Source: a virus
Taxonomy: Duplodnaviria > Caudoviricetes
Strand: one strand, 5' to 3'
Virus record (IMG/VR): IMGVR_UViG_3300037851_000542
Location: 32,001 to 96,000 of that record
Length of the DNA: 64,000 bases
Positions 32,176-43,407 of the stretch are shown in pieces. Positions within the stretch are counted from its first letter, which is position 1, and each line of letters opens with the position of its first letter. Position numbers and translations under genes: made by a program. The notes beneath the pieces were generated by a model. It searched no databases, was not told the DNA's origin, and saw nothing but the letters and a program-made list of their open reading frames with translations.

Positions 32176-32862
32176 ATTAAAAACCTTTGATGAATATTAA
32201 AGCTTCATTGATTTTACTTAGCAGTTCTTTTTTGCCCTCAATAAGAATACCGGAATCTCGATTAGCACTCTCCCCTTTTAAAGTTATTAATAAATAAGTA
32301 GCTTTAAAAGATATGGTTTTTATGTCCCCTGTATTAAAGAGTTCAGATCTTATTGCGAAAGCTTGTCTCCCCTCAGGGTACTCCTCTAACTGAATAAAAC
32401 CTCTTTGTAGTTTTTTTAATGACCAAAAAGCTGGTAAATCGGAGTAAGTATTGTGATAAAATCCTGCTGAATCAGAAATATAAAGCGTTTTTGCATCATA
32501 CCAGCAATTATATTGAATATAATAAGTAGGTTCTTCTTGTGCCATATTAACTAACTCTAAATCTTTTTCAAACTATTCAAGGATTGCCTGTCCAAGCTGA
32601 CTCTAACTCTAAGTCTTGTTCAAGCTCTTCTAACCTAGCCTCTAGTAATAATATTTTGTTAGCAGTTTCTACTCTCTTATCATTAAGAAGATCTAATACA
32701 TTATTTAATCTATCTATGTAACCTTGTAATAAAGATTCTACTACTTGATTATCACTTTCCATTTGCCTGATTACATATTTTAACTGTCCTTCAATTTCCC
32801 TAAATGATGCCATAATTTATCCTTTTTAATTATTTAATTATTTAATTAACCGATAATTATAT

Positions 32863-32889
32863 TATCGACAGGATAATGTTTTTTCTTTA
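32863..32889 (-). promoter_or_regulatory. sigma28-like promoter
   Basis: minus strand cTAAAga, 16 nt, GTCGATA. Confidence 0.7.
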
Positions 32890-33303
32890 GGTATTTATTT
32901 AACTATGAGGCAAAGTGGATGAATAGATGTCTTTTAGTGCTGTAGCTTCTTGTAGAGTAAAATCAAGCAGTAACATAAAATATGCCAATCCTAGTACCGC
33001 CATAGTTGCTAACACAGTTACTACTGTATATTTTGCAGACTTAATAAAACAACAATCAAGAGATGTTAGTTCAATAATAGCACTAAACAAGGCAACTAAC
33101 CCACCACAAGCGCTAATAACCATCGCTGTCAATATAAAAACTCTAATAATTAAATAAATCACAAATTGTGTAAAAGCGTCCATATTTTTATGCGTCCTTT
33201 AGTTTTTAAAATTACTACATACCTATCCCATAGTACTTGTTGAGAAATTAGTTATTCAACTAAATTACCACATTTTACGGTAGATTCACAATAGTACCAG
33301 ATA

Positions 33304-33343
33304 CAAAAAAACCTAGGTAGGTCCGATTGGACCTACCTAGGTT
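33304..33343 (-). terminator. Rho-independent terminator
   Basis: perfect stem acctaggtaggtcc/ggacctacctaggt with 4-nt loop, followed by a T-run on the minus strand, downstream of 33371..34612. Confidence 0.85.
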
Positions 33344-33370
33344 AAAGGATTAACTAATGCGATTTAAGTA

Positions 33371-34612
33371 TTATTTATCAGCACATACCTTATTTTTACA
33401 CTTTTGGATCTCTTTTTGAAGTCTTTCTAGGTCTGATTTAGTCGCAGCAATTCCTGGTCCTTGTGTGTTGCAGTACTTGCGTGCTGCTCTTTGAGCTGGT
33501 GCGGCAAAGTCTACATATAACTTTACTGACAACTTTTTAAGTTTTCTAATTAAAGTCTTATTTTCTGTTACTACACATTCTCCTGGGCACAAGTACACTT
33601 CTGTGATTAAGGAATCTACTAGATTTTTAAATGCGTCCCATACTTGTTTAGACTTTTTAGTGTAATCTAGCTTTGGTGCCCCGCAACTTTCTGCTTTACT
33701 GCTGTAAATTTCAGTTTTGGTAACTAAAATTTTAGATTTTGAAAGTAGCGCACTTACGTCAGTTTTTGTATAGTAAGGTTCTGGTATACAACCTGCAACG
33801 GTAGGCTCTACAACTGGAATCTCTGTGGGCACTTCAGTAGGTACTTCAGTCTGTACGATTATTACTGTAGGCGCAATCGTAGGTTCAGATGTGGGTACAG
33901 TAGTAGGCGTTTCAGAGGGTATTGCGGTTGGTGTATTTGTAATCGCTACGGTTGGCGTTTTCGATGGAGTGCTAGACGGAGTACTTGTAACCACCTTAGT
34001 CGGAGTACGAGACGGCACTGTTGTAGGAGTACTTGTCGATACTTTAGTAGGTGTCTTAGACGGAGTGCTTGTTGGCGTACTTGTAACCACCTTAGTAGGA
34101 GTATTAGACGGTACTTTTGTTGGAGTGCTTGTAGGCACTTTTGTAGGCGTGGCGCTTGGAGCACAGACAGTAGGGGTATTTGTTGAAACCGCTGTAGGAG
34201 TGCTTGTTGGCGACTTAGTAGGAGTTTTTGAAGGTGTTCTAGTAGGAGTAGGAGTAGGAGTAGCACATACATTTGAGTTAGGGTTTGTAAACTGCTGCCC
34301 TAGTCCGTTTACAGTGCTGTTGCACCCGCTCTTAATAAAAACTGTAGTTATAGGTTTTTGAGTACTGTAAGTTTTAGTATAACCTGACAAGTTATCATAT
34401 TTAATTTCAGTGTCGTCGCAAAACCTAATAATAACATTGGACAATTCCTTATTAGAGCTAACCGTTACTGAGGTATTACTATTAAATATAGCCGAAGGGG
34501 TTGATAAGCAACTACTGTCTTCAAAAGTCTCCTGTGTTTGAGCCTGTAGAACAGGTTGCTCTATAATAAGAAGTAAAAGTAAACATAAGTATAAGATTCT
34601 ATTATTCATCAC
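33371..34612 (-). CDS. secreted Pro/Thr-rich mucin-like protein with Cys-containing N- and C-terminal domains
   Basis: signal peptide; repeated PTSTPSKTPTKV-like units; paired Cys. Confidence 0.8.
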   Translation of the reverse strand: MMNNRILYLCLLLLLIIEQPVLQAQTQETFEDSSCLSTPSAIFNSNTSVTVSSNKELSNVIIRFCDDTEIKYDNLSGYTKTYSTQKPITTVFIKSGCNSTVNGLGQQFTNPNSNVCATPTPTPTRTPSKTPTKSPTSTPTAVSTNTPTVCAPSATPTKVPTSTPTKVPSNTPTKVVTSTPTSTPSKTPTKVSTSTPTTVPSRTPTKVVTSTPSSTPSKTPTVAITNTPTAIPSETPTTVPTSEPTIAPTVIIVQTEVPTEVPTEIPVVEPTVAGCIPEPYYTKTDVSALLSKSKILVTKTEIYSSKAESCGAPKLDYTKKSKQVWDAFKNLVDSLITEVYLCPGECVVTENKTLIRKLKKLSVKLYVDFAAPAQRAARKYCNTQGPGIAATKSDLERLQKEIQKCKNKVCADK

Positions 34613-34781
34613 TGTGCCTTAAAATATTTAATTAAACAAAAAGTCCGATTTAAAGGTATTACGGCATATATTTAAATAAACTTGAGTGAAAAATTAAAAA
34701 AATGCCTTGTTGAGTTGTTAGTTTTAACACTAAAATGGGCAAATAGCAACCTATTTGAGGAAAACAGACTATATCTTTTAA

Positions 34782-35162
34782 ATGGGAAAATTAAAATTAA
34801 AACACCTTACGCCAGAACAATATGAATTCTATAAGAAAAATATCTTTAACGGTGTGGGTACTAGTTTTGCTGGTATAAATCCTCCCGATTTTAAATTTGA
34901 AGAAGCAGCATTATATCACGATTTAGCCTATTGGGTTGGAGGTAATGAACTAGACAGGTTACAGGCTGACTTTATATTTTTTTATATAGGTGTAAAATGC
35001 ATTTTTAAATCACCTTGGTATATGTGGTTAGGGCTTTCAATAATTTTACCTATTTATAGTCTTTTTGTGTTATTATTCGGTTGGATCTCTTTTGAGTATG
35101 GTAAACCTTCTAAAAACTGGGAAGAACTTCTAGATAAATATAATAAATCTAAAACAAATTAA
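34782..35162 (+). CDS. phage membrane protein with HD motif (DUF1353/PLA2-like)
   Basis: NGVG..FEEAALYHDLAY..G..DRLQAD. Confidence 0.45.
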   Translation: MGKLKLKHLTPEQYEFYKKNIFNGVGTSFAGINPPDFKFEEAALYHDLAYWVGGNELDRLQADFIFFYIGVKCIFKSPWYMWLGLSIILPIYSLFVLLFGWISFEYGKPSKNWEELLDKYNKSKTN

Positions 35163-35169
35163 AGCACTT

Positions 35170-35198
35170 GTAACTTAAAAAAACTTAGTATATACTGT
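35170..35198 (+). promoter_or_regulatory. sigma70-like promoter upstream of the S2 gene
   Basis: TTGTAA-17-TATACT. Confidence 0.5.
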
Positions 35199-35266
35199 TG
35201 TATATAAGCAAGAATTGCTTTACCATACTATCTAAATGTATAATTTTTAACTTGGATATCTAAAAT

Positions 35267-35368
35267 ATGATGTATTTTGTTATAGGATTTGTTACAGGAC
35301 TTGTTTTTCATAAATATAAAGATAAGCTATTAACTAAAGCTATATCCTTTTTAAAAAAGGATGAATAA
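35267..35368 (+). CDS. 33-aa membrane peptide coupled to S2 (TAATG overlap)
   Basis: MMYFVIGFVTGLVFHKYKDKLLTKAISFLKKDE. Confidence 0.45.
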   Translation: MMYFVIGFVTGLVFHKYKDKLLTKAISFLKKDE

Positions 35369-36297
35369 TGGAACTTAGCAATAGTAACGAAAACGAGAAT
35401 AAAATTAGTAATTTATCTGAAATACCAGTATTTGAGGTAGGATTTCAATCCCTATTGGACGCTAAAGCCTTTTATGGTACCTCGTGTGATGACTGGAATC
35501 CTAAAAGTGCCCCTTTTATCCTGTGTACAAAAACCAATAGACAGCCTAAAAGAAAGGGAAGATCAAAACATACTTATTTAATTGATTTAAGTATAACATT
35601 AAAGTCTTGGAACCGCGCCAAACAGTTTATTGAAAATACCGCATCTGCGGGTGGCAATTTTATGTTTGTAGGTACCCAACCAGAAGCAGGCAAGCTAATA
35701 CGAAGATGCGCTGAACAAGTGGAGGCGCTTCATGTGACAAAAAAGTGGAAGGGAGGAACTCTAACTAATTTAAAAATAACTCTAAACTCTATAAAAAGAT
35801 TAGCTAATCTAGAAAAACTTATTAAAAAACTAGACGATGCCGAAGCAGAAGGTACTTCAATCAATAAGAAAGAATTAAATTTATTAAAAAAAGAACAAAT
35901 TAAACTAGATGAACAGTATGGTGGAATAAGAAAGTTAAAAAAACTACCTAGTGCTTTAATAGTTTTTAACATGCTAGAACATAAAACAGCAATATATGAA
36001 GCTAAAAAATTAGGAATACCTGTTATTTGCGTATCTGATACTTTGGGTAATCCTGAACTCTCTGAATATTTTATAGCCTGTAATACTTCCTCTACCTCAG
36101 CTTTAAGACTCTTTATTATAAATATGTTTTCTGCTATTGAAACGGGATACAGAAAAAGAGACTTTAAACTATCCCAAGAAAATTTAATTAAAGAATTTGA
36201 TACCTTAGAAGAAGATACTAATATGGTAGTGAGTATTACAGCTACTGATATTCCAGTGGTGTACAAAAATAACAAAAACAGCTTGACTGTTAAGTAA
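35368..36297 (+). CDS. rpsB: divergent 30S ribosomal protein S2 (uS2)
   Basis: WNPK, YLIDL, FVGTQ, KKWKGGTLTN, GGIRKLKKLP, AIYEAKKLGIPVI..DT..NP. Confidence 0.85.
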   Translation: MELSNSNENENKISNLSEIPVFEVGFQSLLDAKAFYGTSCDDWNPKSAPFILCTKTNRQPKRKGRSKHTYLIDLSITLKSWNRAKQFIENTASAGGNFMFVGTQPEAGKLIRRCAEQVEALHVTKKWKGGTLTNLKITLNSIKRLANLEKLIKKLDDAEAEGTSINKKELNLLKKEQIKLDEQYGGIRKLKKLPSALIVFNMLEHKTAIYEAKKLGIPVICVSDTLGNPELSEYFIACNTSSTSALRLFIINMFSAIETGYRKRDFKLSQENLIKEFDTLEEDTNMVVSITATDIPVVYKNNKNSLTVK

Positions 36298-36315
36298 TTA
36301 CTTTATATAATTAAA
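36287..36315 (+). promoter_or_regulatory. sigma70 promoter
   Basis: TTGACT-17-TATAAT, upstream of 36364..36585 (coordinates approximate). Confidence 0.65.
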
Positions 36316-36681
36316 TAAACAATTAGTGTTTAATTAATGTAAATTAAAATTTTAAGGTAAATTATGCAACAAGAAGAACTCCAAATGCAACTAAGAACGT
36401 TTGTTGAATCGCAATCAGAGCCTGTAACTAAGTCTATGTTTAGCAGAGAATTACGAAGGTTAACAAAAAACCCTAGAGTAGATTCTGGGGCTATTTTGCT
36501 TGAACTGGCTGACATTTTTGAAGTTGAAAAAGTAAGAAATACACCTAAAGGTAGACCTACTGAAGTAGTTAGACTAAGGTCTTAATACTACCAACAAGGC
36601 TACATTAGCCCAATCCTCTTGATACTATTTATACTATAGGAAGATTGACCTATAGTATAAAATATTTAAGGGGATTTTTTT

Positions 36682-38943
36682 ATGATTACATTACCTAGTG
36701 GATCAATTCTAGTACAAAGGGTTATAAACAATGATTTTATTGATACTAAACTAGAATCTGATTTAATTCCAGTTTCTGTAACAGGAATTAATTATATCAC
36801 TGCTGGTATTTCAGGTTCAAACTTGCAGGAACTTCTAGACGACATTGTAATCACTTTAGCAACCAGCGGAAATCTAACAGCATACTCCGGTTATGCTGAA
36901 ACCAATTTTGTTACAGTAACTGGAACTCAAAACGTAACAGGTGCAAAAACATTTACCAACACACTAACATTTAGTGGCAATGTGCTTCCCGCCACTTCCG
37001 GAACTTTAAATATAGGATCTGATACTCTTGCAACTGCTAGTGTATTTACAAGAAATGTTTCAAGTGATGTAGGACAAAGTTTAACCCTTAAGACCGGCAG
37101 TGCTGGTGCTTTATGGGTTATATCCACAGATTCTATTGGAGTAAAATCATCCTTAAGTAGCTCTAACCAGGTTGGAGTAATAGGTCTAAATACTACTGAC
37201 GGTTCTGATAATGGCAGGTTAGAGTTAAGAGGTTATAGTGCTGATGGTTTTCCTAGCCCTTCTACAAGAGGAGGGGCTATATATTTAAACGGTAATGAAA
37301 ATAGCGGTACTGTCGGTATACTAGCAGGATCGTCTGGAAATATAGAATTTAGCACAGATAATACTGAAAGATGGAGAATTGCTACTAACGGGACACTGAT
37401 CAACCCGCAATCTGGTATATCAGCAATTCAATGGAGCGCTGCTAGTTCAGTTGGTAGAATTTTAGGGGCAACAAACAACACTGGACGGTTACAAATTGCC
37501 TCTGCTTCTTTGCCTGATAATACTTTGGGACCTTATATTGATATGAATGCAGCCACAGGGGACTGTAGTATTGTTGGTAAGACTGGGTTTGGAGTTGTGC
37601 TAAACACAGCAGGTGGAAACACGCTTACCGCGAACAGCAATGGGACTGTTAGTATAAACACTACTAATAACTCTGACGTGTTAAACGTACAAACCAATTC
37701 GCCCGATCAAGGAATAACAATAGACGGTTTTGGTAGTGGTACAAGAGCCCAACTTACTTTAAAATCTACAGGTACTACACAGGCTTGGATATCTTGTGAC
37801 AATGGGGCTTTTGCAACCGGGTATAATGGGGCTCTGATTTGTGCATCGACATCAGCAATAGTCTTATTTTCGAACGGTGCAAGTAGGTGGGTTGTTGATC
37901 CTTCTGGAAACGTTCTGCCATACGCCAATACTACTTATGATATCGGTAGTGGTAGTAATGCTTGCCGAATAGTACATACAAGAAATTTAATTAGTGATAC
38001 CGGACAAAACTTGGGTATCGAAGGAAAAAGTGAAATTTACTTTTACACAGGAGGAAGCTCTTCTATTAGGTGGGCATTTTCATCAGCTGGTCATTTTGTG
38101 CCTATCCTAAACCAAGGTTATAATATAGGAGTAGGCGGATCAAACGCTGTGGGATCTATTTTTGCTGTAAACTATTTTGGACCATCAGATATAAACAGAA
38201 AGAGAGATATATCTTCTTCTGATTATGGACTAAATGTTTTAAAACAAATTACACCTATAAAATACAAATATAAGAAGTTTAAATTAAAAACAGTTGACAA
38301 CAAACAGGTAGAAGACTTAGAAGATGAAGATACTCAAGGGGTCTCTAATAAACCACTACAGTTGGGGCTGAGTGCACAAGAAGTAAAAAATTTAATACCT
38401 GAGGCTGTAGTAGGAGATGAAGAAGATTTTAGCCTTTCTATCGACTATACTAAATTAATACCTGTATTAATTAAAGCAATTCAAGAGTTGGACTGTGAAC
38501 ATAAGCCAGTATTTCCTTGTCATTCTGGTTATAGTCCTGTTTTAAATGATATTGTTACTTTGAACTCTGAACTTAAAATTATTGCAAGTACTGAAGCACA
38601 ATCAACTACATCCTTGGGGCTTGTAGGAGAAATTTTAGGTGTAATGCCTTCAGGTACTACTATTGTAGATGCGTTTAATAATAGTTATATATACAACGGG
38701 GTAGTATCTTATAACCTCTGCTCATTAAACTTAAATGGTATTGTTAATAATATCAAAGTATCATCAGAGGGAGGTAACATTGTAGAAGGAGACCTTTTGT
38801 GTACCTCTAGTGTTAGCGGATGTCTTATGAGACAGTCTACAGATTCAGTAAAATCATATTCAATTGCACGGGCTCTAGTTCCAGTTACTTTTAGCGGTGG
38901 GGTCACAGTAATTTCAGGAGTAACAGCTAAAATGTTTAATTAA
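36682..38943 (+). CDS. tail fibre/spike with peptidase S74 intramolecular chaperone and extra C-terminal domain
   Basis: G/S/T/N-rich shaft; SDINRKRDI, GLSAQEV, IDYTKLIPVLIKAIQEL; later GDLLCTS..G. Confidence 0.8.
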   Translation: MITLPSGSILVQRVINNDFIDTKLESDLIPVSVTGINYITAGISGSNLQELLDDIVITLATSGNLTAYSGYAETNFVTVTGTQNVTGAKTFTNTLTFSGNVLPATSGTLNIGSDTLATASVFTRNVSSDVGQSLTLKTGSAGALWVISTDSIGVKSSLSSSNQVGVIGLNTTDGSDNGRLELRGYSADGFPSPSTRGGAIYLNGNENSGTVGILAGSSGNIEFSTDNTERWRIATNGTLINPQSGISAIQWSAASSVGRILGATNNTGRLQIASASLPDNTLGPYIDMNAATGDCSIVGKTGFGVVLNTAGGNTLTANSNGTVSINTTNNSDVLNVQTNSPDQGITIDGFGSGTRAQLTLKSTGTTQAWISCDNGAFATGYNGALICASTSAIVLFSNGASRWVVDPSGNVLPYANTTYDIGSGSNACRIVHTRNLISDTGQNLGIEGKSEIYFYTGGSSSIRWAFSSAGHFVPILNQGYNIGVGGSNAVGSIFAVNYFGPSDINRKRDISSSDYGLNVLKQITPIKYKYKKFKLKTVDNKQVEDLEDEDTQGVSNKPLQLGLSAQEVKNLIPEAVVGDEEDFSLSIDYTKLIPVLIKAIQELDCEHKPVFPCHSGYSPVLNDIVTLNSELKIIASTEAQSTTSLGLVGEILGVMPSGTTIVDAFNNSYIYNGVVSYNLCSLNLNGIVNNIKVSSEGGNIVEGDLLCTSSVSGCLMRQSTDSVKSYSIARALVPVTFSGGVTVISGVTAKMFN

Positions 38944-38946
38944 GTT

Positions 38947-38978
38947 AAAATAGCATAGCCCAAAGGCTATGCTATTTT
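38947..38978. terminator. bidirectional terminator between convergent genes
   Basis: perfect 14-bp stem aaaatagcatagcc/ggctatgctatttt with CAAA loop. Confidence 0.85.
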
Positions 38979-38982
38979 ACAC

Positions 38983-39465
38983 CTAAAATGGGGCATCCAC
39001 TTCCCAATGCTCATTATTAGATTCTGTATGATTTATTGGACCTTTTACAGTAGCAGTTCGATTCTCAAAAGGATTAATCTGCTGTGTGTCTGAATTACTA
39101 TTAACCTTCTTTTTTAAACTTTTAACTTCAAAATCAATATCAAAAGCTACAATCTCTACTCTTCTAATACTAGTTTCTTCTATTGCTCCGGTTTTAGTGT
39201 TTAGTGCATTAATTTTATAATTATAAGAGCTAAGTTTCCCTCTTAGTGTAATTTGATCACCTTTTGATAACAAGTTAGAAACTCTATCTGCTTGACTACC
39301 ATATACTACAATATTATGCCACTCAGTAGATTCTTGTTTAGAATCACTATTATATTCATTAGTTGCTAGTGTAAATGCTGCATAAGAAGTACCTTTAGCA
39401 GTTTCTTTGCGTACAGGATCTTTTCCTATACGTCCTGATAGTATTACAAAATTCATATTTCCCAT
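38983..39465 (-). CDS. ssb: Single-stranded DNA-binding protein
   Basis: MNFVILSGRIGKDP, FTLAT, TEWHNIVVYG, acidic ..APF tail. Confidence 0.9.
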   Translation of the reverse strand: MGNMNFVILSGRIGKDPVRKETAKGTSYAAFTLATNEYNSDSKQESTEWHNIVVYGSQADRVSNLLSKGDQITLRGKLSSYNYKINALNTKTGAIEETSIRRVEIVAFDIDFEVKSLKKKVNSNSDTQQINPFENRTATVKGPINHTESNNEHWEVDAPF

Positions 39466-39555
39466 TTTGCTGCCTATAAAAAAACAAGTTAATATAGGAA
39501 TTATATACGGATGTTTAGTTAACAGCAAGTGCTAATTTTGAATTAAATATACTAT

Positions 39556-40230
39556 ATGATTAACATGTCTATATTATTACAAAAAATTATTCAATTATTT
39601 AAAACAGTTTTTAGTATTACCACTGCTGCTGATCAGGAAGATACTGTAGGAACTGAGCAAGTTGGCATAGATATGCAACTAATTTATGCTCAATTTCCTT
39701 ATGCTAAAAAAGAAGATATAGACTTAAACTACCCTCTTTTAGTTAAAGCATTAAATAAACATGGAATTTTTAGTAGAGAAATGCTTATTTATGCGTTAGC
39801 TACTGTATCTGTTGAAGTTCCTAAATTTAAACCAGTAAAAGAAATACCTTCAAAATACTCTACTAAAAATAAACTAAAACCGTATGATTTTTCAGGATAC
39901 GTTGGAAGAATGGGAAATAAGGATCTTGAAATGGCTACAAAATACTCAGGAAAAGGACTTATTCAACTTACCGGCTATAATAACTACTGTGATCTTGATA
40001 AAAAACTTTTATTAAATGGTGAGTTAGTACAAAATCCAGATTTAGCCTTGGACGCTAAAATCTCAGCAGAGGTGTTAGCTATATACTTTAAAGACAGAAT
40101 TGACAGGGTAAAACAGGCGCTAATTAATAAAGATTTTGCTGAGTTAAGAAAAATAGTAAATGGTGGTTTTCACGGTCTTGATAAATTTGTAGCAAAATTT
40201 AAAGAATTAGATCAAGTTTTTCCTAAATAG
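39556..40230 (+). CDS. GH19 chitinase-like endolysin
   Basis: YALAT..VE, GKGLIQLTGYNNY, NPDL, RKIVNGG..GL. Confidence 0.85.
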   Translation: MINMSILLQKIIQLFKTVFSITTAADQEDTVGTEQVGIDMQLIYAQFPYAKKEDIDLNYPLLVKALNKHGIFSREMLIYALATVSVEVPKFKPVKEIPSKYSTKNKLKPYDFSGYVGRMGNKDLEMATKYSGKGLIQLTGYNNYCDLDKKLLLNGELVQNPDLALDAKISAEVLAIYFKDRIDRVKQALINKDFAELRKIVNGGFHGLDKFVAKFKELDQVFPK

Positions 40231-40685
40231 CCTTTAGTATATCTTTCTAGTTTTAAAAATGCTATCATACTTATATTATGAGCTTTGACCAAATTCCTTA
40301 CAAATTTATTAAAGAATTAAACTCTTTAGAGGATTGTTTTACCAAGCAATGGGTCATTAATTTCTATAACCATATAAAAAAATTAAACCTTTTATGGGTC
40401 TCACCTCATATAACTTTCGACGAGGATAATAATTCTTGTTTAGAATGGTGGTACAATAATAGAAAAGTTACAATATACTTAGAGTTAGAAAATAAACAAA
40501 TTACTGTGTTATTTTATGAAGAACCTGACCAAGATGCTATTTTAAAGTTGGATAAAATTACTGATTTAGTTTTACCTTTAAGCAATTTACAAGAAGTTAC
40601 TAGGATATGGTGTTGGTTTACATGTAAGTATAGGATTTAAATATACTATATACTATTAAGTATATAATTATAATGGGGTTTTTAT

Positions 40686-41363
40686 TTGATGTCTGTAGAC
40701 GACCGTGTAAATCTTCAAAAAGCTCTTTACACTATATCACATGAGTTTAAAAATGACATTATAACCCTGCAAGGTTTAATAACTATTCTTGCCCAAAAAT
40801 ATGAAAAAACCTGGGACGAAGACGATAAGGAAAATATAGACTTGTTATTTGAGTCTATTAAACACCAAGAATCATATATTCAAAGTTTGCTAGATTATTC
40901 TAGAGTCAATACTAGAGGCAGACCAAGCTCTATAAAGTCCATACAAGAGCTTATAGCCATAGCGTTAAAGTCTATAAACAACGAACAAGTTAAAATTGAA
41001 TGTAACTGTAATACTAAATTAAAGCTGGACAATGCTCAATTTACAAAAGCTCTAAGTTGTATAATTATTAACTCTATTCAGTACTCTAACTGTAACCCCG
41101 TTATTATTAACTTTAATTGTGATTCTAAAGAAAATGACTATATATTAAAAATTAAAGATAACGGTACTGGTATAGATGATAAGTTTAAAGATCAGATATT
41201 CTCTGTGTTCTCTCCTGGTAAGAATTCGGTATCAGGAATAGGTATGGGACTTGCCACGGTAAAAAAGATAGTAGAGAGGCAAGGAGGTTCTATTTCTTAT
41301 GATTTTAGTACCAAAGAGTTTATAATAATTTTACCAATTGCATTGTGTTACCAAGATGTCTAA
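40686..41363 (+). CDS. sensor-less histidine kinase (HisKA + HATPase)
   Basis: ISHEFKN, INSIQYS, IKDNGTGI, GIGMGLATVKKIVERQGG. Confidence 0.85.
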   Translation: MMSVDDRVNLQKALYTISHEFKNDIITLQGLITILAQKYEKTWDEDDKENIDLLFESIKHQESYIQSLLDYSRVNTRGRPSSIKSIQELIAIALKSINNEQVKIECNCNTKLKLDNAQFTKALSCIIINSIQYSNCNPVIINFNCDSKENDYILKIKDNGTGIDDKFKDQIFSVFSPGKNSVSGIGMGLATVKKIVERQGGSISYDFSTKEFIIILPIALCYQDV

Positions 41364-41796
41364 TGATTTAATAAATATCTTAATGGTAGAAGACAGCAAA
41401 GCACATGTAAAGCTTACTCAAGAAGCTTTAAAAAGGGCTAAACTTATAGCTAATTTTTACTATGCTAAAGACGGAGAGGAAGCATTAAATTTTATTTATA
41501 AAAAAGGCAATTATTCAAATGCCCCTACACCAAATTTAATACTACTTGATTTAAAGTTACCTAAGTACAGTGGTAAAGAAATATTAAAAATACTAAAAGA
41601 GGATGAAGATTTAAAGTCTATACCTGTAATTATTTTAACTACTTCATCGGCTATACTAGACATAGACGAGTCTTATAAAAGCCACGCTAATAGTTATATT
41701 ATAAAACCTATATCTTTTGAAGGATTGATTCAAACCTTAATGGGTCTAAATAATTTCTGGTTTGTTTTATCTACAAAACCACCAGTTAATGATTAA
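41356..41796 (+). CDS. single-domain response regulator (Rcp1/CheY-like)
   Basis: VEDS, LILLDLKLP, IPVIILTTS, ANSYIIKP. Confidence 0.9.
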   Translation: MSNDLINILMVEDSKAHVKLTQEALKRAKLIANFYYAKDGEEALNFIYKKGNYSNAPTPNLILLDLKLPKYSGKEILKILKEDEDLKSIPVIILTTSSAILDIDESYKSHANSYIIKPISFEGLIQTLMGLNNFWFVLSTKPPVND

Positions 41797-42982
41797 TTAC
41801 ATAATATTTGTATCTTTACTATTATGCTTGCTGTCATACAGGTCAGGTTATAAAAAAGGACTAGACTTAAAAAATAAAACACTAAGTGAGAATCGTCTCT
41901 TAATAGAGGAATTGAATTTTAGGTTAAATTTAATCTTAAATGTTTCTAAAGTAGGTATATGGGTACTAGACATAAAAACCAGAGAATTAAATTGGAACAA
42001 GGAAATGTTTGCAATTTATGAACTAGACCCTAATGAATCCGCTTGTCAAAGTAGATGGTCAGCATCTCTTCTTCCTGATGATTTAGTATTAACATTAGCT
42101 CAGTTAGAAGACAGCATAGCTAATACAAAAGAATTCAATACTTCTTTTAGAATTGTTACAAAAACTGAAGGAATCAGGCATATAAAAGCAATTGGAAATT
42201 TTCTCATAGACGATGATGGACTAGCTTATAAAATGGTAGGTATCAACTACGACAATACAAGTGAAGAAGTATTTAAAAGTAATATTTTATCTTTAAACAG
42301 GGAACTTTTAGATTTTACCTCGATTTTGAGCCACGATCTTCAACAACCTACAACAATAGCTTCTATGTACTTGGATCTTTTGGGCGCTAAAAACCCATAT
42401 TTAGACCCAGACAGTCAGGAGTATTTTAATTATGTTAAAACTTCTTTGAACGAGATAAGTTGCATTTTAAAGGATCTAATAGATCTTATACGTGTAGATA
42501 ACTTAGAAAAAAACCAAGAAGTTAACAAGTCAGAATTATTAAATTTAATAAATTTTAAAGAGATCTTAGAATCTTTAAATTACAACAAGAATTTGATTGA
42601 AATAGTTCTACCCAAAGAAGATTGTTACTTAAGTATGTGCAATAGAGATATTAAATCTCTTTTTACTAACTTAATATCTAACGCTATAAAGTTTTCTGAC
42701 CATAATAGAAAAAACACAATAACAATTACCTCTGATTGTTTAGATAATGGTAAAGTTTTTACAGTATCAGATAAAGGCATAGGTATAGACTCTAGGCATT
42801 TAAATGAGGTAATTAAGCCTTTTTTTAGAGTATACAGTTCTGAGGACTATCCAGGTACAGGGTTAGGTTTAGCTTTATGTGATAAAATAGCAAAAAAATA
42901 CGGAGGTACCTTAAGAATTGAATCTAAATTAGGAGTAGGTACAGATATAATTATAAAATTTCCTTGTCAAGGTACTATATAG
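41789..42982 (+). CDS. membrane-anchored PAS-domain histidine kinase
   Basis: N-terminal TM; PAS (GIWVLDI..WNKEMFAIY..FRIV..MVGINYD); LSHDLQQP; NLISNAIKF; PGTGLGLA. Confidence 0.9.
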   Translation: MINYIIFVSLLLCLLSYRSGYKKGLDLKNKTLSENRLLIEELNFRLNLILNVSKVGIWVLDIKTRELNWNKEMFAIYELDPNESACQSRWSASLLPDDLVLTLAQLEDSIANTKEFNTSFRIVTKTEGIRHIKAIGNFLIDDDGLAYKMVGINYDNTSEEVFKSNILSLNRELLDFTSILSHDLQQPTTIASMYLDLLGAKNPYLDPDSQEYFNYVKTSLNEISCILKDLIDLIRVDNLEKNQEVNKSELLNLINFKEILESLNYNKNLIEIVLPKEDCYLSMCNRDIKSLFTNLISNAIKFSDHNRKNTITITSDCLDNGKVFTVSDKGIGIDSRHLNEVIKPFFRVYSSEDYPGTGLGLALCDKIAKKYGGTLRIESKLGVGTDIIIKFPCQGTI

Positions 42983-42987
42983 AGATA

Positions 42988-43407
42988 ATGCCTAACTCTG
43001 ATTTAAACTCTAAAGATAAGATAGCACTAGCTCGATTAGAAGAGAAGTTTAAAAACCTATCTGAATCTCATAAAGATTTAAAAGAGAGGTATAAACTAAC
43101 TCAAGAAGATCTTATTAAGAAATCAGAAGAAATATCTGAGGCTCATATACAAAATAAACTTTTAGAAAAAGAATTAAAAAGAAATGTAGAGCTGCTGTAC
43201 AAAGATTTTGATGCATTTCTAGATAATATGCAGAAAATAGAGTTAAGTCATAACCTGTTTGAAAAAAAAGTAACAGAAGAACTAAAAACAATAAAAGAAA
43301 AGGGATCTGAAACATTTCTCCTATATGGAAAAATGGCTATGTATTTTATAGGCGGGGTTTTTGCAACAGTGTCTACATTTATAGGTATAGGTATTCTTAA
43401 ATTCTAG
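42988..43407 (+). CDS. coiled-coil protein with C-terminal TM (holin/XhlA-like architecture)
   Basis: heptad-rich body; terminal hydrophobic helix; lies between endolysin cluster and tail fibre. Confidence 0.45.
   Translation: MPNSDLNSKDKIALARLEEKFKNLSESHKDLKERYKLTQEDLIKKSEEISEAHIQNKLLEKELKRNVELLYKDFDAFLDNMQKIELSHNLFEKKVTEELKTIKEKGSETFLLYGKMAMYFIGGVFATVSTFIGIGILKF

Follow-up and report, generated by a model that had tools for sequence, protein, structure and literature searches.

A 64,000-nucleotide stretch of a phage genome encodes a ribosomal protein uS2 in which the bS1- and Zn2+-binding face, as defined in Escherichia coli, is rebuilt at the level of the aligned residues. The stretch, called the window here, comprises bases 32001–96000 of the 259,994-bp IMG/VR virus record IMGVR_UViG_3300037851_000542 (Duplodnaviria; Caudoviricetes), which is rated ~95% complete. 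The product is a bona fide bacterial-type uS2 by sequence and fold, and during infection it may take the place of the host protein on 30S subunits.

The window gene encodes a bacterial-type uS2

The gene and the layout of its product are as follows.

35368..36297, plus strand: phage uS2 gene, 309 codons, 309 aa (Pfam, TIGR01011, AlphaFold2, Foldseek)
Residues 1–22: N-terminal lead, followed by the α/β globular domain
Residues 135–158 and 167–187: the two helices of the coiled-coil hairpin
Residues 243–284: long helix of the C-terminal part, followed by the tail

The Pfam family Ribosomal_S2 (PF00318) matches the protein across the entire profile (positions 1–216 of 216) with an E-value of 3.6e-51 and 173.9 bits (cut-off 26.1). 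The NCBIfam equivalog TIGR01011 (rpsB_bact) gives 169.8 bits against a cut-off of 76.3, less than half of the 360 bits scored by Salmonella uS2. A phmmer search of the PDB sequences returned Staphylococcus aureus uS2 at 2.5e-32. The AlphaFold2 model, built with 147 homologues, has a mean predicted local distance difference test (pLDDT) score of 91.8 and a predicted template modeling score of 0.84. Foldseek superimposed it on ribosome-bound bacterial uS2 chains with target-normalized template modeling (TM) scores of 0.91–0.93 and root mean square deviations of 2.2–2.8 Å. Both parts of the uS2 fold, the α/β globular domain and the protruding coiled coil, are present in the model. An earlier sequence-only reading of the window had recognized a full uS2 fold signature and had named failure to predict that fold as grounds for rejecting the assignment; the fold is predicted with high confidence.

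The phage origin of the gene is equally clear. It lies at about 67 kb in a genome that encodes a large terminase (TerL), DNA polymerase, ribonucleotide reductase (RNR), and an HNH endonuclease, and it is surrounded by a tail fiber with an S74 chaperone domain, a single-stranded DNA-binding protein (SSB), an endolysin, and a tail spike. The sequence-only reading had noted the lack of tsf downstream. A tblastn search found no tsf, pyrH, or frr in the whole 260-kb genome, and the gene therefore stands outside an rpsB-tsf operon context. The S1, S21, and L12 Pfam families also gave no match in the phage genome.

The phage uS2 belongs to a small lineage

Relatives were sought in two protein sets of 5.8 billion and 1.84 billion sequences. 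The closest are P0002, P0003, and P0121 at 90%, 63%, and 50% identity. Below the 50% relative the identity drops straight to ≤39%, and no cellular uS2 in either set exceeds 39%, which bears out the strong divergence claimed from the sequence alone. The best-scoring cellular uS2 proteins are encoded in canonical rpsB-tsf-pyrH-frr operons with 47–49% guanine plus cytosine (GC). P0003, P0121, P0125, and P0126 are encoded on contigs rich in adenine and thymine (AT-rich), among phage genes and small open reading frames (ORFs) without assigned function, and none has tsf beside it.

A maximum-likelihood tree was calculated from an alignment of 80 rows; the gap filter took out the insert and tail and left 280 columns. 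Four close lineages group with support of 100/99, and P0125 and P0126 join them in a clade of six lineages with support of 100/97; the bootstrap of this careful tree was not fully converged, and a quick tree agrees with it. Every tsf-linked uS2 falls into a separate 54-row clade (94/96). The nearest cellular uS2 proteins, from a Rhabdochlamydia metagenome-assembled genome (39%) and from rpsB-tsf contigs, lie outside the phage clade, and several basal rows come without an assigned genomic context. A profile of the six lineages scored only clade members above 430 bits, the next match being at 245 bits. Six clade lineages were recovered from more than 15 billion predicted proteins, and a search of 185,579 GTDB species genomes for the inner-clade signature motifs gave 0 matches. 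The tree, the absence from GTDB, the gap in profile scores, and the tsf-free phage contexts indicate an old family with few members that, in the sampling available, is restricted to phages. The phylogeny and viral survey that the earlier reading had proposed as checks thus place the protein in a phage-only clade apart from the tsf-linked sequences.

Wider searches returned only distant proteins. Pattern scans of IMG/VR with the protein and with the clade alignment gave no additional close members, and a wider alignment found five viral contigs in IMG/VR at 28–33% identity. An INPHARED tblastn search gave only matches at ~30% identity, in host-like or unannotated records, and a scan of JGI metagenomes gave only relatives at 27–38% identity, mostly tsf-linked. 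The IMG/VR contigs L012, L013, and L015 look like host DNA because tsf directly follows rpsB; filed as viral but carrying host chromosome, they are a caution for viral ribosomal-protein surveys.

Selection on the gene was estimated against L007, a phage found in several other samples that is 81% identical in DNA and 90% identical in uS2 protein. The proportion of nonsynonymous differences (pN) is 0.074 and that of synonymous differences (pS) is 0.64; the ratio of ~0.05 derived from them is only approximate because the synonymous distance is saturated. By this sequence comparison, uS2 is kept by purifying selection in these phages.

The bS1/Zn2+ face is rebuilt

In E. coli, the Zn2+ ligands of uS2 are His18, Asp188, Asp204, and Asp205, and Phe32 stacks on Phe5 and Phe9 of the S1 N-terminal helix, a contact called essential for ribosome binding (Byrgazov et al., PMC4288201). 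The same work describes a salt bridge from Arg208 to S1 Asp39, the packing of His15 and Phe16 beneath S1, and contact between the uS2 β-hairpin and the N-terminal helix of S1. D'Urso et al. (PMC10123108) confirmed the pocket formed by Asp188, Asn203, Asp204, and Asp205, found His18 stacked on S1 Phe79, and stated that His18 is 100% conserved in PF00318. These residues were mapped onto the phage protein by alignment with Salmonella uS2, which shares the E. coli numbering. The corresponding segments are listed with their positions.

35476..35487, plus strand: residues 37–40, GTSC replacing GHQT (His18 is Thr38; His15 and Phe16 are Phe35 and Tyr36)
35524..35574, plus strand: residues 53–69, extended β-hairpin loop with a net charge of +7, directly after Leu52 (Phe32)
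36082..36090, plus strand: residues 239–241, NTS replacing NDD (Asp204 and Asp205 are Thr240 and Ser241)
36097–36099, plus strand: Ser244 (Arg208), just past the NTS range
36232..36267, plus strand: residues 289–300, clade-specific C-terminal tail motif S-I-T-A-T-D-I-P-V-x-Y-K

The phage protein carries His15Phe, Phe16Tyr, His18Thr, Phe32Leu, Asp204Thr, Asp205Ser, and Arg208Ser, and only Asp188 and Asn203 are retained among the named contact residues. The Zn2+ site reads Thr, Asp, Thr, and Ser in place of His18, Asp188, Asp204, and Asp205, so one of the four ligands is kept. The bS1 anchor has likewise been replaced, with Leu52 at position 32, a loop of 17 residues instead of 6, and Ser244 at the position of Arg208. 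KWKGG stands in place of RWLGG at residues 126–130. All three altered motifs reported in the sequence-only reading are therefore present, as are the other two changes it described, a basic insert (TNRQPKRKGRSK, residues 56–67) ahead of YLIDL and an extended C-terminal tail.

Of 152 uS2 sequences, 137 have a hairpin loop of 6 residues; the 11-residue extension in the phage protein is basic. The model forms the hairpin from strands 51–56 and 68–72 with pLDDT values of 92–95. The tail motif is invariant in the relatives at 50–90% identity, and among 268 homologues its core, [AS][TS]D[IV]PV, is restricted to the six lineages of the clade. The pLDDT of the tail is 57–75, which suggests that it is probably ordered only on a partner. 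Basic hairpin and tail are both conserved in relatives whose identity ranges from 33% to 90%.

The rest of the protein is more conservative. The phage sequence retains 40 of the 58 columns that are ≥85% conserved in the cellular clade, including WxGGxLTN, KKE, EAxKLGIP, and the Gly/Pro landmarks. The changes fall on 5 of the 7 named S1/Zn contacts compared to 13 of the 51 other conserved columns (Fisher p = 0.025). The relatives indicate the order of the changes. All six lineages have the extended hairpin and His15Phe and are altered at Lys73, Glu169, and Asp165, except that P0003 keeps Asp at the last of these. Loss of the Zn2+ ligands is limited to the inner four lineages and is partial in P0121. 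According to these alignments, the face that binds bS1 and Zn2+ in E. coli has been remodeled in the phage uS2.

Diverged uS2 genes are found in other phage-like contigs. L022 (9863–10771), L023, L025, L032, and L041 (33–1028) are AT-rich, phage-like contigs with a tsf-free uS2 at 32–36% identity. Their neighbors include genes for a clamp-loader ATPase and an RNase T-like exonuclease, as well as series of small ORFs without assigned function. L011 is a 7.9-kb IMG/VR contig of 56% GC that encodes an ordinary cellular-type uS2 of 270 aa (125–937). Genes for a phage lysozyme and a gpA-type large terminase lie downstream in the same orientation, and the contig could represent an independent recent capture or a prophage edge. 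The L011 protein falls inside the cellular clade of the tree, and the other phage-like copies form separate lineages. These proteins share with the window uS2 the lack of a downstream tsf and the phage-like neighbors (clamp loader, RNase T, and small ORFs, or lysozyme and TerL), but they differ in keeping His18, Phe or Tyr32, Asp188, Asp204, Asp205, and the 6-residue loop and in lacking the tail motif. Canonical residues and a short loop were found in L022, L025, L032, L041, and L011, which argues that the remodeling is a derived trait of the window lineage and not of phage uS2 generally. A uS2 gene outside the rpsB-tsf operon may be commoner in phage-like contigs than the literature suggests.

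A possible role on host ribosomes

Bacterial uS2 is an essential, late-assembling, and exchangeable 30S protein, and bS1 is the main recruiter of messenger RNA (mRNA) in many bacteria. Translation of leaderless mRNAs does not require S1, and ribosomes depleted of S1 select such mRNAs (PMC4288201). Translation of the leaderless λ cI mRNA is improved in rpsB mutants that are short of uS2 (PMC10491246). A changed uS2–S1 interface is therefore a plausible route to altered mRNA choice.

During infection, the phage protein would sit at the uS2 site of host 30S subunits, and its rebuilt face near the mRNA exit would dock host bS1 poorly or not at all. Alternatively, the new surface made by the basic hairpin and the tail would dock something else, or the basic loop would contact mRNA directly. 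Initiation would then shift toward phage messages. The analysis establishes what the gene is, its fold, phage setting, age, and selection, and which residues differ; the incorporation into ribosomes, the lost or changed S1 docking, and the benefit to the phage we infer. Taken as a whole package, in which the phage paralogue takes the uS2 site on the host 30S subunit, alters S1 docking, and favors phage mRNAs, the proposal seems to us about evenly poised between right and wrong. A stronger version is tentative at best: this jumbo-phage lineage would make phage-specific ribosomes, with the bS1/Zn2+ dock dismantled and host bS1-dependent initiation excluded. Similarly doubtful is the accompanying idea that phage mRNAs, or a phage factor bound to the new tail, take over the mRNA-exit platform. 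Specialized ribosomes and displacement of S1 had been put forward from the sequence alone, and the suggestion is supported at the sequence level, where the named bS1/Zn2+ contacts are replaced and the insert lies in the hairpin that touches S1.

Several observations weigh against the proposal. The changes at 18 of the 58 highly conserved positions, including His18 and Lys73, could equally mean departure from the ribosome. The residue roles are taken from E. coli structures and may not transfer, and the placement of the insert relative to S1 rests on the structural descriptions in the papers. The phage 5' regions are not obviously leaderless, and a core Shine-Dalgarno 4-mer is present at only ~27% of crudely called starts.

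Departure from the ribosome is an alternative that we consider unlikely. The uS2 fold would have been turned into a free-acting RNA-binding regulator, a decoy for a uS2-recognizing host factor, or a tail scaffold for phage proteins; one such regulator, in line with the sequence-only reading, would mimic uS2 autogenous repression at the host rpsB-tsf leader. Cellular uS2 has a known extraribosomal regulatory role. The phage protein has lost the near-invariant residues His18, Lys73, Asp165, Asp204, and Asp205, and its basic loop and conserved tail, the latter with no assigned partner, are new. However, the entire two-domain architecture, including the coiled coil, WxGGxLTN, KKE, and EAxKLGIP, is under strong purifying selection, and its retention is hard to explain without a ribosomal binding site. 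No leader known to Rfam, t44 among them, was detected around the gene, a result that bears on self-regulation only and not on host targets.

Rather more unlikely is a plain spare part, in which the phage supplies uS2 for 30S assembly or repair after host transcription is shut off and ribosome behavior is unchanged. Such a function would fit an essential protein that assembles late, and the canonical-residue uS2 proteins of other phage-like contigs are in keeping with it. For other phage ribosomal proteins, substitution for the host copy has been proposed (PMC6375957). A spare part should, however, retain the Zn2+/bS1 site, and this is where the changes are concentrated (p = 0.025); the new basic hairpin and tail would also not be expected to persist in relatives as distant as 33% identity.

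The gene is a long-term resident of the phage genome

The genes flanking the uS2 module are needed to describe its junctions.

34782..35162, plus strand: 126-aa upstream gene that accompanies uS2 in the phage lineage
36364..36585, plus strand: 73-aa gene with no assigned function at the right-hand junction of the uS2 module; a gene is in the equivalent place in L007

The phage-like AT content noted in the sequence-only reading is evident by every measure. The base composition is even along the whole window. The uS2 gene has 32.4% GC compared to a genome mean of 33.9%, and its GC at third codon positions is 23.5% compared to 24.6%. The cosine of its codon usage to that of the genome is 0.94, the 65th percentile among genes of similar length. 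A blastn comparison shows L007 to be collinear with window 35114–36482, with both uS2 junctions conserved; L007 matches the window in its upstream neighbor, small ORF, uS2 gene, and the gene that follows. On the 21.6-kb contig of P0121 (L016), collinearity extends over window 34791–43404, about 9 kb, in the order upstream gene, uS2, fiber C terminus, endolysin, histidine kinase, response regulator, and PAS kinase. Proteins of this block are 30–62% identical, and uS2, at 47%, lies within that range; the gene has therefore diverged in step with its neighbors. The ameliorated composition, the phage-only clade, and the synteny with the 50% relative agree with the long residence that had been proposed, and the gene is neither a chimera nor a recent capture.

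The phage could have acquired the gene recently from an unsampled host lineage in which uS2 already has the odd features, but we consider this improbable. The absence of an identified host and the basal tree rows without assigned context leave some room for such a donor. Against it, the signature motifs are absent from all of the GTDB species genomes, all six clade lineages of known context are tsf-free and lie among phage-like genes, the divergence of uS2 from L016 matches that of the collinear neighbors, and the composition is fully ameliorated.

An assembly chimera or host contamination of the viral contig is highly improbable. Two freshwater metagenomes were the only sequencing runs found to contain the phage DNA, and no RNA run was among the matches of either run search. 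In run X1, a single Logan contig of 97,866 bp spans window 32500–39500 with zero differences and even depth. Run X2 contains the same DNA at even depth in three contigs, and the block 34706–36730, which holds the 126-aa gene, the small ORF, uS2, and the 73-aa gene, is a separate contig of 2,025 bp. The breaks on its two sides, at 34706–34728 and 36731–36761, would suit a chimera, as would the host rpsB-tsf stretches that viral databases do include (L012, L013, L015) and a dispute that has reportedly been published over ribosomal proteins in PhiMa05. However, the X1 contig reads through the locus, both junctions recur in the phage with 81% identical DNA from other samples, GC and codon use are phage-typical, and phage genes lie on both flanks. 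A chimeric contig at this position, which the sequence-only reading had named as a reason to discard its claim, is contradicted by these data. Repeats were considered as a cause of the X2 breaks, and none were detected within the genome; strain variation or a cassette boundary is possible.

An upstream ORF may control uS2 expression

Two features precede the uS2 start codon.

35267..35368, plus strand: 33-aa upstream ORF with a hydrophobic N terminus and a basic/acidic C terminus; its TAA overlaps the uS2 ATG (TAATG)
35343..35363, plus strand: 9-bp RNA hairpin that pairs the Shine-Dalgarno-like AAGGA with the 3' end of the small ORF

The stop codon of the small ORF and the uS2 start codon share one base, and the Shine-Dalgarno-like AAGGA of uS2 lies at 35357–35361, 6 nt before the ATG. 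A 33-codon ORF with an overlapping stop also precedes uS2 in the 90% (L007) and 63% (L002) relatives. The 33% relative (L018/L019) has a different hydrophobic ORF of 37 codons in the same overlapping position. The hairpin is both the minimum free energy and the centroid structure in the window (z −2.0) and in L007 (z −2.5). L002 has a differently spelled hairpin over AAGGUGA, with a z of only −0.6, and no Shine-Dalgarno hairpin was found in L016 and L017, relatives without the overlapping ORF. The overlap and the predicted hairpin are a likely basis for translational coupling, in which translation of the 33-codon ORF would open the hairpin that hides the uS2 Shine-Dalgarno sequence. The sequence-only reading had described coupling to a membrane peptide. 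The overlap and the hairpin are consistent with the coupling; the term membrane rests only on a hydrophobic N terminus of 13–14 residues. A predicted complex of uS2 with the 33-aa peptide scored 0.00, which counts neither for nor against binding.

An Rfam scan of 34500–36800 at E ≤ 1 gave no family and no t44/rpsB-type leader. The promoter candidate TGTATAAT lies at 35237–35244, 22 nt before the small ORF. The TGTATAAT octamer is not enriched upstream of genes (4 of its 30 copies in the genome), and a consensus scan was at chance level.

Comparison with known uS2 and viral ribosomal proteins

Compared to bacterial uS2 (RpsB), the phage protein has the same fold and core motifs and a full-length match above both curated cut-offs. 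It differs in its identity of ≤39%, in the replacement of three of the four Zn2+ ligands and of Phe32, and in the lack of a tsf partner. A basic hairpin that is 11 residues longer, a long C-terminal helix, and a conserved tail are additional. The phage uS2 is a natural separation-of-function variant with which to approach the uS2–S1 interface and the debated uS2 zinc site.

Phage-encoded ribosomal proteins are known and are mostly small and loosely bound, and their effect on translation is largely unproven. Reportedly, Chen et al. 2022 is another study on virus-encoded ribosomal proteins. Mizuno et al. 2019 (PMC6375957) describe a search of viral genomes with 106 profiles that included PF00318. 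The ribosomal proteins given there include bS21, bL12, bL9, HPF, bL31, bL33, uS9, bS6, uL11, uS15, bL19, and bS20, and uS2 does not appear in the main text or in the supplementary files examined. Al-Shayeb et al. 2020 (PMC7162821) report S4, S1, S21, and L7/L12 in phages, and the PhiMa05 papers report bS1, bL21, bL27, bL33, uL11, and uL1. Full-text literature searches, in which journal coverage was partial and an earlier description is possible, found no published phage uS2 or rpsB.

The window gene resembles these cases in being a lone ribosomal gene in a phage genome, under purifying selection, whose product presumably replaces the host copy and biases translation. Phage S21 proteins with additional basic extensions have likewise been reported (PMC7162821). 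The difference lies in the protein, as uS2 is a large, two-domain, essential platform on which bS1 docks and the proteins of the surveys are mostly small and peripheral. The list of ribosomal proteins found in viruses is extended by a core platform protein with a re-engineered interface, and this gives a sharp, testable hypothesis for virus-made specialized ribosomes. If the hypothesis is true, this would be the first virus to re-engineer a core, essential 30S platform protein rather than a small, peripheral one.

E. coli ribosomes that lack S1 and S2 (rpsB temperature-sensitive or S1-depleted; PMC4288201 and PMC10491246) offer a parallel in that an altered uS2–S1 link changes which mRNAs are initiated. 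Those ribosomes represent loss-of-function or stress states, whereas the phage would use a dedicated uS2 variant.

The phage and the neighborhood of the gene

The genome has 32.9% GC, is ~91% coding, and contains no transfer RNA genes. The closest cultured phages share ≤27.5% identity in TerL and 26% in DNA polymerase, and the phage is a member of an uncharacterized jumbo-phage lineage. Its host is not identified, there being no close cultured relatives of TerL or polymerase and the use of Shine-Dalgarno sequences being weak and non-diagnostic.

The 126-aa protein encoded upstream of uS2 has an NGVG...HDxxY-type motif, and its C-terminal half is hydrophobic; its family is small and consists mainly of small viral proteins. 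The Atlas leads, to phospholipase-A2-like families of prokaryotes and to DUF1353, are weak, and the match to Pfam DUF6787 does not reach the cut-off. Homologues lie directly 5' of uS2 in L016 (29.5% identity) and in L002, where the ORF is truncated to 45 aa (70.6% over 34 residues).

Two further features of the window were observed. The segment 40686–42982, which lies between endolysin and tail spike, encodes a histidine kinase, a single-domain response regulator, and a PAS histidine kinase. L016 (10566–13324) has this cassette in the same order at 39–62% identity, which marks it as a stable feature of the phage lineage. On the minus strand, 33371–34612 encodes a 413-aa protein with a signal-peptide-like N terminus and long Pro/Thr/Ser-rich repeats (PT...TP motifs). 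It has no Pfam or PHROG match, and a homologue is encoded at the matching place in the 90% relative.

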